Below are positions 13,231-19,647 of a stretch of 37,192 nucleotides of DNA, piece after piece. Origin of the DNA: an uncultured archaeon (GTDB taxonomy: Archaea; Asgardarchaeota; Lokiarchaeia; Sigyniarchaeales; SOKP01); the NCBI GenBank assembly GCA_964388035.1, contig CAYLZE010000045.1, positions 1 to 37,192 on the forward strand. The letters are read 5' to 3'. The position numbers and the translations under genes are program-made. A model generated the notes under the pieces. The model saw only the letters and a list, made by a program, of their open reading frames with translations, was not told where the DNA came from and ran no database searches. Numbering within the stretch: the first letter of the stretch is position 1; the number at the start of each line of letters is the position of its first letter.

Positions 13231-13247
13231 AAAAAATTAATATTAAA
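13231..13247 (+). promoter_or_regulatory. Putative BRE/TATA box of the uS13-uS4-uS11 operon
   Basis: AAAAAA-TTAATATTAAA about 25-35 nt upstream of ATG 13272. The AT-rich background lowers specificity. Confidence 0.4.
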
Positions 13248-13271: not shown

Positions 13272-13786
13272 ATGTCATATTGGTGCATTTATTGTCAGTA
13301 ACTCCTATTCGACCTTCGAATTTCAAGGAAAAAGTCTTTTTTCGTAAACTAAGAACCCAAGTGGATGGAAATAGCAAATTAGAATTTGCTCTAACTCAAA
13401 TTAAAGGGGTAGGAAAGAGATTCGCTCAAGCCGTCATAAAAGTCTCTGAAGTAGATCCCAGAATTCGAATTGGCACCATCTCAGAACGGGATTTAAACGA
13501 ACTTGAAGAAATCATCATGGCGCCCGCTGAGCATGGGATCCCATCTTACCTATTGAATCGTAGAAAAGACCCTAGAACAGGCACCGATTCGCAAATCCTC
13601 GGCAGTCAATTAGAAATTTCCGTGAAACGAGATATAGATAAAATGAAGAGGATTAAAAGTTATAAGGGAGTGAGACATCACCTGGGACTAAAAGTAAGAG
13701 GACAGAGGACTAAAAGCACGGGCAGACACGGATTAGTTGTTGGTGTCGTCAGAAGAAGATTAGCACAGAAAGGAAATAAAGCGTGA
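13272..13786 (+). CDS. rps13: 30S ribosomal protein uS13; proposed join(13272..13278,13317..13786), otherwise TTG start at 13280
   Basis: LTQIKGVG, SYKGVRH and LKVRGQRTKSTGR make the identity certain. The 5' structure is uncertain (see findings). Confidence 0.93.
13279..13316 (+). other. Candidate 38-nt intron with degenerate BHB geometry in rps13
   Basis: UGUC-AU^A ... GACC-UU^C, with 3 of 4 central pairs. Removal yields MSSNFKEK in frame. The flanking helices are poor. Confidence 0.45.
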
Positions 13787-13797
13787 GGGTTTAAATT

Positions 13798-14316
13798 ATG
13801 GGAGATCCGCGTAGATTAAGAAAAAAATATAAGAAACCACGTCATCCTTTTCAAAAAGCCCGAATTCTAGAAGAACTCGAATTTGTTGGAAAGTATGGCT
13901 TGAGAAATAAAACGGAATTTTGGAAGATGCGCTCCAAATTAGCAAATTGGAGAGATTTGGCACGACAATCCCGAGCTCTACCTGAAGAAAGAGCAAGAGA
14001 AGTACAACAGATCTTATTAAAAAAATTGAATAGATTAGGAATAATCGGTTCTGAAGCGCAATTCGATGATATTTTGCTTTTAACCGTTGAAGATGTCTTG
14101 AAAAGACGACTACAAACATTAGTTTTTGAAAAAGGACTAGCTAGAACCATTTATCACGCAAGGCAATTGATCGTACACGGGCACATTCAAGTTAGGGCTA
14201 ATAAAATAACTGCTCCTTCCTATTTGGTTAAATCAGATGAAGATGATTTGATTTTATTTGCGGCAAACAGTCCCTTTGCCGGAAAGAAAGTAGAACAAGC
14301 CACAAGAGGTAAGTAA
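13798..14316 (+). CDS. rps4: 30S ribosomal protein uS4 (archaeal type)
   Basis: [24 protein letters not shown] and [10 protein letters not shown]. Confidence 0.97.
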
Positions 14317-14317
14317 A

Positions 14318-14710
14318 ATGAGTAAAAGAATCCTTTGGGCAATCGTGCATATTTTTAGTAGCTACAACAATACGCTCGTGACGGCCACTGATCTCTCAGG
14401 AGCAGAGACCTTTTCTAAATGTAGTGGAGGAATGGTGGTTAAAGCAGACCGGGATGAATCTAATCCATACGCTGCCATGCAATGTGGTTTTAGAGTAGCA
14501 AATGATTTGATGGATAAAGGAATTAGAGGGGTTCATATAAAAGTGAGAGCACCGGGAGGAAATAAGTCTCAAACTCCTGGACCTGGAGCCCAAGCATGTA
14601 TTCGAGCTTTAGCTAGAGCTGGTCTTCATGTGGGTCGAATTGAAGAAGTGACTCCCCGATCACACGACCATTCGCGAAGAAAAGGCGGGCATCGTGGCAG
14701 AAGAGTTTAA
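14318..14710 (+). CDS. rps11: 30S ribosomal protein uS11
   Basis: [32 protein letters not shown] and RRKGG.RGRRV. Confidence 0.97.
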
Positions 14711-15011
14711 AAAAAGAATGTACGGAATTATTTCTTATTGAATAAATTTCAAGTCTTGAGATTTCTATTCTTTTTCCTATTTGTTTTTGATTATACCGAA
14801 ATCATTTTTTAGATTCATGACTCCTCTCATGCGTGGAGTTTAGTTACCATCAGATACATTTTTAGATAAAGAAATGAAAAAAACCTCCCTATAAATGCAA
14901 TTGGTTAAAAAGTAGAGTCAAAGTAAATTTAATTAAGTATCTCTTAAATTATAACTTATTAGTTTTAAATTACTTCAATATATTTAGAATTAACCTGTAT
15001 GGGAATTAAAT

Positions 15012-16178
15012 TTGACAAGTAAAATTGAATCAATAAAATTGACCCCCATCCACGTTCCCTTTAAGCCTGCTGTAAGAAAAGCCATGGCGGAAAGTGAAGG
15101 GGGACTAGGAATGGCAATTGGAGCCGAGGAAGCGTGGTTGGGGGGCGATTTCGTCACATGCCAAATGGCAGATAATCAAGGTAATGAGGGGTTAGGGGAA
15201 GTATTCTTATGGTTACCTGAAACGGGTATTTCTCCCGAGCAAGTTATTGATAGTATTGAAAAAAGTTTGTCTAAATATATCATCGGAGAAAATCCCTTTA
15301 ATATTCAAAAAATCAATCATAGAATGGACATCAACCTTGCCCGTAATGACGTGGCGAAAGGCCTGCTGGACATGGCATGTTATGATTTAATGGGAAAAGC
15401 TAAAGAAGTACCTGTTTGTGAGCTAATTGGAGGAAGAAATGTCGAAAAAATTCCTTTAGCGGCGCTCATTCCCCTTGGAGAACCAATGTTAATGAAAGGG
15501 TTGGTGAGAAGTTATTATAAGAAGGGGTATCGGACCTTTCGATTAAAATTGGGAAAAAGCGTTCAAAAAGATGTAGAAATTGTGGATACCATTAGGAAGA
15601 CCTTTGGGAATGAAATCCGTTTACGCGTGGATTATAATCAAGCTTATACGCCACAAATGGCCATCAAAGCTATTGAAGCCATTACTCCCTATCAGATTGA
15701 TTATGCGGAACAACCCGTAAAAATCGTGGATTATATTGGAATGGCTCACGTTCAAAAAAGTGTCAAAGTTCCTTTATTATCTCATGAAGGATGTTTTTCA
15801 TTGCAGGATTTTGTCACCTTAGTAGAGCTGGGGGCGGTTAAAGTGTTAGGAATTAATTCTGAACGTCCCGGAGGCATTACTAAAGCTCTTAAAGCTTTGA
15901 ATTATGCGGAAATTAGAGGGTTGGGAGTAGTTTTTCATAATCAACCACTTGGAATCTCGTCTGCATTTCAAATTCACATGGTAGCTTCTCATATTTATTC
16001 AATAGAGCATGCTACGGAACTATTTGGACAAGAAATGCTTGAAGATGATTTAATTGTTAAACCTTTGGAGATATCAGATGGAATGGTAAAGGTTCCAGAG
16101 GGTTCCGGATGGGGGATTCAATTGGATGAAATAGCCATGAAAAAATATATTACAAGTTCTCCTTTGACCTTGGAATAA
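15012..16178 (+). CDS. Enolase superfamily enzyme (mandelate racemase/muconate lactonizing subgroup)
   Basis: LDMACYDLMGK, RLKLG, RVDYNQ, EQP, HE and VKVPEGSGWGI. Confidence 0.88.
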   Translation: MTSKIESIKLTPIHVPFKPAVRKAMAESEGGLGMAIGAEEAWLGGDFVTCQMADNQGNEGLGEVFLWLPETGISPEQVIDSIEKSLSKYIIGENPFNIQKINHRMDINLARNDVAKGLLDMACYDLMGKAKEVPVCELIGGRNVEKIPLAALIPLGEPMLMKGLVRSYYKKGYRTFRLKLGKSVQKDVEIVDTIRKTFGNEIRLRVDYNQAYTPQMAIKAIEAITPYQIDYAEQPVKIVDYIGMAHVQKSVKVPLLSHEGCFSLQDFVTLVELGAVKVLGINSERPGGITKALKALNYAEIRGLGVVFHNQPLGISSAFQIHMVASHIYSIEHATELFGQEMLEDDLIVKPLEISDGMVKVPEGSGWGIQLDEIAMKKYITSSPLTLE

Positions 16179-16450
16179 AAATATTTAAAAATCATTTATT
16201 TTCAATTGATCTTATCCATTCATTCTTATCTTTCTACATTGCTCATTATTGGATTTTTAAATGACCTTATTCATATTATCAACGTGATAATCAATTTAAT
16301 AAAGCAAAATTTCGATGATTTTTTTTACATCTTTACAAAAAAAGATATATTGCTACTATTCTTACATTAAAGTGTAATTAATATTCAATTTCATCATATA
16401 ATCAATATAAAATTATACAAATATTAAATTAAATCAACATAAAGCGATAG

Positions 16451-18526
16451 ATGAGTGAAGATTTAAATTTTCAATCCTTAATAGCGGAAGTAAAAGAACT
16501 CCATTCTTTACTAACTAAAGGAGAACCTACTCCCGATGAGGAAATAGAAGCAAGGGATAAATTTATTCAATTATTCGAAAATCTTAGAGCGGTTGCTACT
16601 GAACCCAAGATCCAAACTCTTATAGAAGAATCTTTGGAGAAACTTGAATCGTGGGATGCCTTGGAGCTATGGTTCAATGAAGTACCGGATCTTTCGAAAA
16701 AGATTAATCAATTAATTAAAGTCACGGGAATAGAGCTATCAGGTCCTTCCTCTCCGCTTCAGGAATCTCCCGGGAGTCAAGTCACGGAAAAATCGAGGGA
16801 ACCTGCGAATATTGATGTAGAACAAGTGGTTGAAAAAGTATCAGAACAATTTAAAAGTGAAATTTCTGCTCTAAAAGATGAAATTAAAAGGCTTCAAGGC
16901 GAATTCACCCAAAAAGAGTCAATTATTGAAGAAGATAGAGAAACAAGTAGAAAACCAACGATTCCCATTAAAGAACAAAGTGGTAAAAAAGAAGAAATTA
17001 AATTGACGCCCCCAGAAATAAAGATACCAAAGCTCATCCTTCCAAAAAAGTCAACACCCTTTAAAAGGGAATTTTCTACTGCAGAAAAGATAGAAGAAGC
17101 TAACGTGGTTCAATTAGAAGGTATAGAAGAAGAGAAAGGGCATTCAGATAAATTAACTGATCGCGTAAAGAAGTTGGAAGAATTGATATCTCCGATTAAG
17201 AAAGAGATCCCAGATGAAGAAAAGCCATCTGAGGAATTTCCACTTATTACTCAAGACGAAATTCAGTCTTTTGAAGAACCCACAAATTTAAAGAAAGTCG
17301 AGCAGCTTATTCCTCCAGACATTAAAAAGCAATCTATTCTCGATAAAGATTTACGCGAGATGATTCAGGAAAAAGAGTCTACAGACATTATTTCTGAAAT
17401 AACCAAAGACTCTCTCGAGACTGGTCCATCGCTTGAAAGCACTGATAAAGACCAAATTTCTTCTGGAGAGTTTGAACAACCAAAAATTCCCGACTTTGAA
17501 GTTTCAGAAATTTTCCGAGAGCCCGAATTTGTCCATGAATCCATTCAAAGCTCCACAGAACAAAGCCTAGATCAAGGTAATCCTCCGAATAAAATAATTG
17601 ACACGGAACTAAATTCGATAGAATCTCAAATAAAGGGTCCCCCTCCTCCCATAATTTTCAAATCCACAGAAAAGTTATCTCCTATACCTGTAGATCCAAC
17701 AAAGGCAAAAACTAAGTCAGAGAATCTGAGTCCCGTTCCAGAAAAACCAGACATGCACTCATCTGACTTACCCGCTAAAAAGTCAAAAATAACTCTTGAA
17801 GTAAGGGAAGAACCCACCCTCAGAGAAGAATCGACTACGGTTCCCTTTATTGCCGCACAGAAAAGTAAGAAGCATGTTTCTATAGTTTCTGAAGTTATAG
17901 AAGAAGCTTCACCAATGACAAAGGATGCGGCTGGCCCTTTCGTTCAAAAAAAGGTATCTAAAAAGGATGCCGACCAAGCACTTCCAATGTCAACAACGGA
18001 TAAAAAATCTGACAAGGAAAAAGAGGACGCTACAGCTATTCCCTTCCTATTAAATATCCAAAAAGAAAAAAAAGGCGATCAGGGTCGTGATCTTTCTAAT
18101 CACCTAAAAACAAGTGGATCGACTTTATATAATACCTTTGCTTCACTTGGAAAGGAATCTCCTATATTAGATACTAAAAAGAAAAAAGAAACGCCTCCAT
18201 CCTCAAAAACGTCAATTAATTCTAAAAAAACCTCACGTATTCAGACTAAAGGTGGCGACCAAGGGGAGCGGGCTATTAGCGAGGACGTTATTCCCCTCGA
18301 TATTAATGCTTTTCCTCGTGATAAAGATAAGTTGTATCAAGAACTCATTTCTTTTGAAGGAAAAAGATACAACATAGAAAAGAAGCATAAAGAATTAGAA
18401 GAAAAACATAATAATGGCTTGCTGGACGATTTTGAATTCAATAATGAAGCAATGAAATTAAAAAAAGCACTTGATACTATCACGAATACCATAAATAGCA
18501 TTCGACAAATCATCTCGAGTCTTTAA
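16451..18526 (+). CDS. Hypothetical protein with helical termini and a long E/K/P/S-rich disordered middle
   Basis: 691-aa ORF with a coiled-coil-like segment near the N-terminus, a low-complexity centre and a helical C-terminal domain. Confidence 0.8.
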   Translation: MSEDLNFQSLIAEVKELHSLLTKGEPTPDEEIEARDKFIQLFENLRAVATEPKIQTLIEESLEKLESWDALELWFNEVPDLSKKINQLIKVTGIELSGPSSPLQESPGSQVTEKSREPANIDVEQVVEKVSEQFKSEISALKDEIKRLQGEFTQKESIIEEDRETSRKPTIPIKEQSGKKEEIKLTPPEIKIPKLILPKKSTPFKREFSTAEKIEEANVVQLEGIEEEKGHSDKLTDRVKKLEELISPIKKEIPDEEKPSEEFPLITQDEIQSFEEPTNLKKVEQLIPPDIKKQSILDKDLREMIQEKESTDIISEITKDSLETGPSLESTDKDQISSGEFEQPKIPDFEVSEIFREPEFVHESIQSSTEQSLDQGNPPNKIIDTELNSIESQIKGPPPPIIFKSTEKLSPIPVDPTKAKTKSENLSPVPEKPDMHSSDLPAKKSKITLEVREEPTLREESTTVPFIAAQKSKKHVSIVSEVIEEASPMTKDAAGPFVQKKVSKKDADQALPMSTTDKKSDKEKEDATAIPFLLNIQKEKKGDQGRDLSNHLKTSGSTLYNTFASLGKESPILDTKKKKETPPSSKTSINSKKTSRIQTKGGDQGERAISEDVIPLDINAFPRDKDKLYQELISFEGKRYNIEKKHKELEEKHNNGLLDDFEFNNEAMKLKKALDTITNTINSIRQIISSL

Positions 18527-18679
18527 AACTTGAATTCTCTATTGTTAAGTATACTCAAAACTCTTTTCTCATGTGTATTAGCCTATTTTACACCTTTATA
18601 TAGTAAATCACTATGATATCTGCAAGGGCAATGGTTCAATTTTCCATAATTTTTAAATAACCGAAAAGTTAATTAGATC

Positions 18680-19471
18680 ATGCGAAAATTAAATTATGAA
18701 AAACTAGTCCTTGACATTTCAAATTGGATGAAGGAGTATACCATTGCTGCTCAATCAAAAGGGATAGTAGTTGGACTCAGTGGAGGTATCGATTCTTCTG
18801 TTACAGCAGCACTTTCTGTTAAAGCTTTTGGCACAAAAAACGTACTTGGAGTGGGGATGCCCTGTAATTCTATACCTCAAGATTTAATGGATGCTAAACT
18901 AGTAGCTCAAGAATTAAACATTCCTTTTTATGATTTTGATTTAACCTCCGTATATAGGGAATTACTTGCTCAATTGCATGTAAAAGAAGAGGAACGTGAT
19001 CTTGCACTTTCAAATATTAAACCACGTTTACGAATGACAGCTTTATATTATTTGGCACAATCAAAAGATTATTTAGTAGCGGGCACTGGAAATAGGACAG
19101 AAATACTGATCGGCTATTTTACCAAACATGGTGATATTGGAATGCAAATCGGATTTCAACACTAAGGAGGAGTAGATCTGGAGCCTATTGGGGCACTGTA
19201 TAAATGTGAGGTCAGGGAACTAGCAAAACTCTTAAACATACCTACCAAAATCATTACAAAACCCCCCTCTGCTGGATTATGGAAAGGTCAAACGGATGAA
19301 GGGGAAATTGGCATGACGTATAATGAATTAGATGAGATTTTATACCGGCTGGATCATAGCTTAGATTTAAGTGATAATCTTCCTCACATTTTAGAAAAAG
19401 TTCAAAATATGATTAAAAAGTCAGAACATAAACGAAAACTCCCCCCCATATTTCCCATTAATGGAGAGTAA
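18680..19471 (+). CDS. nadE: NH3-dependent NAD+ synthetase, join(18680..19135,19166..19471), 253 aa
   Basis: Exon 1 has VGLSGGIDSS, NIKPRLRM, GTGNRTE and GYFTKHGD. Exon 2, in the same frame, has GGVDLEPIGALYKCEVRELA, KPPSAGLWKGQTDEGEIG and SEHKR, with TAA at 19469-19471. Confidence 0.93.
19136..19165 (+). other. Candidate 30-nt bulge-helix-bulge (BHB/BHL) intron in nadE mRNA
   Basis: Central helix GGUG/CACU, 3-nt bulges AUA and AAG, and 7-bp intron stem UUGGAAU/AUUUCAA. Canonical cuts restore GD-GGVD. Confidence 0.8.
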
Positions 19472-19647
19472 GAAACGGTTTTTTACAAAATGTGTTTTTT
19501 TTAATTAAATTCCTTGAATTGAAGATGATTTGGTAATTAAATAAAAAGTTTCTTTTTCTATATCATATAATTTTTATTTACTAACTCTAACTACATATAT
19601 AAATGATTTAAAATTATAATTAATATAAATGAATTAGAGTAATTATC

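Follow-up and report, generated by a model that had tools for sequence, protein, structure and literature searches.

Short inserts with bulge-helix-bulge geometry in nadE and other protein genes of a lokiarchaeal genome, and a probable start-codon shift in rps13

The nadE insert and its predicted splicing

The DNA analyzed here (37,192 nt; referred to below as the window) is contig CAYLZE010000045.1 (assembly GCA_964388035.1) of an uncultured archaeon (Asgardarchaeota; Lokiarchaeia; Sigyniarchaeales; SOKP01). The genome under study (G000; 5.47 Mb; 33% G+C; its contigs are given as C-numbers) is a metagenome bin with a reported contamination of 7%, and a relative of the same genus is referred to as G001. 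Two genes in the window, nadE and rps13, have reading frames that are interrupted by short inserts (Table 1). The nadE insert is a convincing candidate for a 30-base, tRNA-type intron with a bulge-helix-bulge (BHB) structure, and at least 16 inserts of the same architecture were found in other protein genes of this genome. The rps13 insert has no such structure.

The open reading frame (ORF) that begins at 18680 in nadE ends at 19165, and the same frame then resumes as GGVDLEPIG.... Its length (162 amino acids [aa]) is well below that in all 21 family relatives with an orthologue (about 255 to 290 aa). Alignment with nine relatives showed an excess of exactly ten codons, located between the invariant residues GD and GG, and the Pfam NAD_synthase profile is continuous across this point (i.e., exon 1 matches positions 4 to 143 and exon 2 matches positions 144 to 242). 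An independent Logan contig from an environmental DNA run (X1) covers 18856 to 19500, and hence the insert, with zero differences. In four DNA runs, no indel or joint was reported at the nadE site or at the rps13 site, and no contig piece was listed across 13272 to 13297. The interruption was present in none of 80 nadE homologues from a metagenome scan (all matches, ≤50% identity), and the intron sequence occurs only once in the genome.

TABLE 1 Features of nadE and rps13 (positions in the window) and inserts in other protein genes of the genome. Slashes separate the profile positions on the two sides of an insert; carets mark predicted cuts.
Feature	Position	Strand	Remarks
nadE	18680-19471	+	Interrupted gene; stop codon, 19469-19471
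nadE exon 1	18680-19135	+	152 codons, ends ...TKHGD; Pfam NAD_synthase 4-143, E = 1.4e-42; alignable with 21 family relatives as far as GD
nadE central 4-bp helix, 5' strand GGUG (exon)	19130-19133	+	Pairs with 19160-19163: G-U, G-C, U-A, G-C
nadE 5' three-base bulge AU^A	19134-19136	+	Unpaired in the fold of 19126-19175; predicted cut after 19135
nadE insert, read as a BHB mini-intron	19136-19165	+	30 nt, in-frame; last three bases are an in-frame TAA
nadE intron hairpin	19137-19159	+	7-bp helix (19137-19143 with 19153-19159), 9-nt loop
nadE central helix, 3' strand CACU (intron)	19160-19163	+	Partner of GGUG
nadE 3' three-base bulge AA^G	19164-19166	+	Symmetric to the 5' bulge; predicted cut after 19165
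nadE exon 2	19166-19471	+	Starts GGVD...; Pfam NAD_synthase 144-242, E = 3.9e-28
TTAATATT box, probable TATA box	13237-13244	+	In upstream DNA of most family relatives
Ancestral rps13 ATG	13272-13301	+	Now heads a 9-codon frame ending in TAA (13299-13301)
Direct repeat TGTCA, first copy	13273-13277	+	5 nt; second copy, 13293-13297
Extra bases in rps13 relative to G001	13278-13297	+	20 nt; boundaries slide within 13273-13297 owing to the repeat
rps13 from in-frame TTG	13292-13786	+	Gives M-SVTPIRPSNF..., the conserved N terminus
FGGY kinase insert			Pfam FGGY continuous, 78/79
CinA/MoCF insert			Pfam MoCF continuous, 66/67
E2 insert			Pfam UQ_con 62/68
NAD-dependent epimerase insert			GDP_Man_Dehyd 143/146
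TFE insert			TFIIE_alpha 67/69
pyrG insert			CTP_synth_N 62/70
ACAD and thiolase inserts			Paralogue continuity; about 30-31 nt

The borders of the nadE insert have the central helix and the 3-nt bulges of an archaeal BHB intron. The hairpin of the insert was calculated at -9.1 kcal/mol (z = -2.05). The share of genome positions at which a fixed 30-nt site has four central pairs together with seven or more inner pairs is 4.4e-5. The archaeal splicing endonuclease (EndA) canonically cuts after the second base of the bulge. The cuts predicted in this way (19135/19165) are the only pair that restores GD/GG, i.e., the sequence expected of a functional product.

We propose the following route for the nadE transcript. 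The last exon bases, GGUG, would pair with CACU near the 3' end of the intron, the bulges AU^A and AA^G would flank this central helix, and the 7-bp hairpin of the intron would stack on it. EndA would cleave both bulges after their second base, and RtcB would then join the exons, restoring ...TKHGD/GGVD.... The geometry and the exact restoration of the protein can be read directly from the DNA, and the enzymes are encoded in the genome; from these we infer the cutting and joining steps.

Regarding the enzymes, the genome encodes two EndA paralogues (tRNA_int_endo) of about 200 aa, at C146:8038-8646 and C33:37574-38176. The C146 protein most resembles the catalytic subunit of the Aeropyrum pernix heterotetramer (3p1z_B; E = 1e-35), and the alignment of the two shows conservation of Tyr, His, and Lys in the motifs vY..,.Hs, and vrKkf. 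The C33 protein has Ser at the position where the aligned structure 5x89 has the His of the EH motif. One catalytic and one noncatalytic paralogue would fit the (alpha-beta)2 type, an architecture that has been inferred for most Asgard genomes (bioRxiv 10.64898/2026.10.13.758758). The (alpha-beta)2 and epsilon2 types of EndA are reported to cut noncanonical or relaxed introns (PMC5829648). The genome thus has the host enzymes for relaxed BHB introns, namely, the EndA pair and RtcB (C23:14016-15323), with the specificity itself taken from the cited study.

Similar inserts in other protein genes of the genome

We scanned the genome for sites that combined a 4-bp helix, 3-nt bulges, and an adjacent hairpin and whose excision joined two open, coding-like frames. 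The candidates were then checked by inspection and by comparison with Pfam and with paralogues. Decoy scans used bulges of 2, 4, or 5 nt or central helices of 2, 3, 5, or 6 bp. The 3-4-3 geometry was enriched, with 15 sites of 28 to 34 nt at -5 kcal/mol or better, compared with 3 to 6 for the decoys. At least 17 inserts (28 to 37 nt), including that of nadE, were accepted as introns with the same architecture in protein genes. The original prediction had suggested that nadE might belong to a genome-wide class of short protein-gene introns, and this suggestion is supported by the at least 16 further inserts of 28 to 37 nt with BHB geometry, which lie at points of Pfam or paralogue continuity. 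In addition to the inserts listed in Table 1, there are eight with partial profile support or with a motif read by eye only (i.e., those in genes for a Zn-ADH, a Prismane/CODH-like Fe-S protein, Roadblock, a nucleoside phosphorylase, a DeoC-type aldolase, an SCP2 protein, DnaG, and a PorB-like protein). A census of paralogues that was blind to structure also yielded the E2, epimerase, ACAD, and thiolase genes, each with an insert of ~30 nt. The insert census favors good hairpins and genes with paralogues or Pfam domains, and the number of introns in the genome probably exceeds its count. The interrupted TFE gene is the sole copy above the Pfam cutoff in the genome; thus, the inserts cannot all be lesions of pseudogenes. 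Furthermore, the interrupted pyrG gene is the only pyrG locus found.

The inserts are stereotyped in length and in their bulges. Lengths of 28 to 32 nt account for 16 of the 17, and the mode, exactly 30 nt, for 10. The introns begin with A in 13 of the 17 cases and end in AA in 14, compared with ~11% expected for AA with A at 0.33; the exon base just 5' of the first cut is also usually A. Beyond the bulges, the 17 intron sequences are unrelated. The tRNA introns that ARAGORN identified in the same genome (23 to 33 nt) have bulges of the same A-rich style. A-rich bulges and a length of ~30 nt, which recur in the tRNA introns, fit structural recognition by EndA. An intron in this genome would therefore be recognizable by A-rich bulges, by a length of about 30 nt, and by a 4-bp helix between exon and intron. 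ARAGORN called only 22 tRNA genes in the genome, 15 of them with introns, and many tRNAs were probably missed owing to multiple or noncanonical introns.

The pyrG intron (C37:627-659) has a much weaker BHB, in which the central helix consists of three G-U pairs and one C-G pair. Its boundaries slide over a GGTA repeat, and its bulges are not A-rich. Given this weak BHB, the family is not uniform.

The nadE and CinA-like introns, which were the two tested in this respect, are both absent from the same-genus relative, indicating that these two are recent gains. We consider it moderately probable that about 20 stereotyped 30-nt BHB introns were recently gained in protein genes of this genome, including those for TFE, DnaG primase, and pyrG. 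If this is true, there would be an active mechanism that makes introns with a 3' end complementary to the local exon, and mRNA expression in a relative of eukaryotes would routinely depend on the tRNA-splicing machinery.

Several other interruptions and scan matches were set aside. In another genome (G012), the CinA-like gene has a short open frame because of masked N bases. The split HdrA/MvhD pairs of the paralogue census are not introns; they are neighboring genes that correspond to a fusion in the matched paralogue, together with in-frame TGA codons. These codons lie in MvhD-like genes downstream of HdrA-like genes (C32:4122-4170 and C4:112161-112233), at a site where the C57 paralogue has Cys (..C-W-K-TGA-G-Y-G.. 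versus ..C-N-W-C-S-Y-A..), and they are probably selenocysteine codons and not introns. At C12:66808-66831, a P-type-ATPase-like gene shifts to the +1 frame with overlapping open frames and no insert, i.e., a frameshift that is either a sequencing error or real. Short high-G+C contigs (C191, C197, C200, and C204), which are likely contaminants, gave spurious scan matches. Relaxed structural scans without coding filters produced thousands of false positives at operon junctions, such as the S4/S11 junction in the window (14304-14341); another match of the relaxed scan in the window (17655-17698) is antisense and likewise a false positive. The window also contains a 691-aa ORF (16451-18526) between an enolase-superfamily-like gene and nadE; its product has low-complexity stretches and a high content of Glu, Lys, and Ser.

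The rps13 insert and the shared junction heptamer

The rps13 gene of the same-genus relative begins with ATG TCA GTA ACC GCT ATT... (MSVTAIRPKNF). The gene in the window has ATG TCA, 20 extra bases, and then GTA ACT CCT ATT... (..VTPIRPSNF). The interruption is real and shifts the frame. The ancestral ATG lies 27 nt from the TTAATATT box, the same spacing as in G001, and the S13 N terminus is MS..(P/A)IRP in all of the family relatives.

The original prediction treated rps13 as a second intron-containing gene, a proposal that fails for a BHB intron. We enumerated every pair of cuts that would join the ATG frame to the S13 frame, and none had a BHB. The pair 13278/13298 has two of the four central pairs and no inner helix, and UGUC lacks complementary bases where the helix would need them. 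Among the equivalent 20-nt cut pairs, the best has three of the four central pairs, two of them G-U, and again no inner helix. The insert therefore does not have the 4-bp helix with bulges of a BHB intron. The region does not fold stably (-2.8 kcal/mol; z = +0.92). The insert is not repeated elsewhere in the genome, its length falls outside the 28- to 37-nt range of the introns, and it is without the A...AA bulge bases.

A change of start codon would account for rps13. A 15-nt filler and a 5-nt TGTCA target duplication would have been inserted just after the ancestral ATG TCA. The duplicated TGTCA is preceded by T, so that an in-frame TTG TCA would have been recreated and the S13 start would have moved to the TTG at 13292. 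Any base but C before the duplicated TG would recreate a start codon. Given that the BHB is absent and that the frame from this TTG encodes exactly the conserved N terminus, S13 is most probably translated from the TTG at 13292, with the old ATG heading a 9-codon upstream frame. In the orthologous S13 gene from another genus of this family (L045; G008:C8, upstream of 17584), TTG is the sole possible start. Two other candidates were rejected. A UCA-to-UCA translational bypass in rps13 would have a take-off site with neither a stop codon nor a hairpin and with two codons translated before it, and an apparent TAA inside the S13 gene of G007 is its normal stop codon.

The proposal that the two inserts belong together was based on a common 5' junction, i.e., a 4-nt helix followed by AU^AUUGG. 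The strings themselves are present (GGTG-AT-ATTGGAATGC at 19130-19145 and TGTC-AT-ATTGGTGC at 13273-13286), as is a UAA in both unspliced frames (nadE, TAA at 19163-19165; rps13 ATG frame, TAA at 13299-13301). The 4-nt helix is found at the nadE junction (GGUG with CACU at 19160-19163), whereas UGUC at the rps13 junction lacks a partner in the position needed. In the window, ATATTGG occurs 7 times, compared with 10.1 ± 3.3 times in dinucleotide-preserving shuffles; in the genome, there are 1,560 copies on both strands, compared with about 1,260 expected from the 33% G+C composition. At this base composition, the shared heptamer is a coincidence and carries no statistical weight, as the original prediction had allowed for with two cases. 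It occurs in 1 of the 17 inserts (nadE). Because it is absent from the rest of the family, neither a common origin nor sequence-guided recognition, both of which had been proposed, is indicated. The existence of an intron family is thus supported, though not by the junction motif first offered as evidence, and a junction heptamer shared in an AT-rich genome is no evidence of an intron.

Alternative explanations and comparison with known systems

On balance, we regard as probable the reading that nadE has a BHB intron that belongs to a family, that the start codon of rps13 has shifted, and that the shared heptamer arose by chance. Several points weigh against it. Excision is a prediction for every insert, including that of nadE. 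No homologue with the nadE intron was present among those compared. Next to the 7-bp inner helix (h'), the outer exon-exon helix of nadE consists of a single G-U pair; because an outer helix is missing, the nadE BHB is a relaxed form and would require an EndA of broad specificity. In rps13, the use of TTG, as opposed to other processing, is deduced from the sequence and from one TTG-starting orthologue. Finally, the genome encodes a second NAD synthetase homologue (552 aa; C37:38378-38770); therefore, nadE cannot be shown to be essential and could have become a pseudogene recently. In the latter case, nadE would have been recently inactivated by a 30-nt mutational insertion that folds by accident, which would agree with the absence of the insert from all relatives and with the presumed status of splicing. 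We nevertheless judge this explanation unlikely, because both halves of the gene are otherwise intact with strong profile scores, an exact BHB stands at boundaries that were defined by homology (chance, about 4e-5), and inserts of the same architecture in at least 16 other genes include those in the sole above-cutoff TFE gene and the only pyrG locus, which cannot all be dead. It is far less likely still that the inserts are assembly artefacts or that readthrough or recoding occurs at the in-frame TAA. An artefact might be suspected in a metagenome bin with contamination, but the X1 contig is identical over 18856 to 19500 and none of the four runs reported an indel or joint at either site. Read-through would insert 10 residues into the invariant GDGG motif, and nadE itself ends in TAA.

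Similar considerations apply to the other two parts of the favored reading. The rps13 insert might also be spliced out, either as a BHB intron of very relaxed form or as an intron of another kind. In favor of its removal, the insert is real and puts the ancestral ATG out of frame, this ATG retains its spacing to the conserved promoter box, introns in essential genes are clearly tolerated in the genome, and the (alpha-beta)2 EndA accepts relaxed motifs (PMC5829648). Such removal appears doubtful, however, since no cut pair combines a 4-bp central helix with any adjacent helix, the fold is unstable, and both the length and the bulge bases differ from those of the introns, while the TTG start yields the same protein from the unspliced message and is the start used in G008. 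As for the heptamer, we give hardly any credence to the possibility that ATATTGG reflects common descent of the introns or an element read by the splicing machinery. The same 7-mer does occur at both the nadE and rps13 sites, and three of the 17 introns (nadE, ACAD, and thiolase) have AT^A as their 5' bulge, but the heptamer is enriched in neither the window nor the genome, and the intron sequences are mutually unrelated and unrepeated in the genome. Moreover, a BHB-like site that is preceded by T and starts with ATTGG (C23:12256-12293) was rejected as an intron because it is real CutA1 coding sequence.

If the inserts are spliced, this single Asgard genome, in which many of them interrupt essential genes, would show that EndA/RtcB splicing can serve mRNAs at scale in archaeal relatives of eukaryotes and that such introns are gained quickly. 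Standard gene callers would then split or truncate the interrupted genes.

A full-text literature search found BHB introns in coding sequences for cbf5 only (PMC2738675), plus one intron in a Haloferax 5' untranslated region (UTR); the Haloferax paper likewise gives cbf5 as the only other example reported (PMC7714728). The Haloferax intron, in the 5' UTR of the HVO_1309 mRNA of Haloferax volcanii, is also an EndA substrate outside tRNA and rRNA. It lies in an untranslated leader and breaks no reading frame, whereas the rps13 insert, also at the start of a message, has no BHB. The tRNA introns of Asgard archaea (bioRxiv 10.64898/2026.10.13.758758) share with the inserts described here the recognition motif and the inferred two-subunit EndA. 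Their hosts are tRNAs (the preprint nowhere contains "mRNA" and uses "protein-coding" once, for neighboring genes), whereas the hosts here encode proteins. The pre-mRNA intron of cbf5 in Crenarchaeota (Watanabe 2002; Yokobori 2009, PMC2738675) is likewise short, lies inside an archaeal coding sequence, and has a BHB at its junctions; it is removed by the (alpha-beta)2 tRNA splicing endonuclease and has been gained and lost between close lineages (PMC2738675). That intron concerns a single gene of thermophilic Crenarchaeota, in contrast to the at least 17 genes of one Asgard genome described here, with inserts of ~30 nt, A-rich bulges, and presumed splicing.

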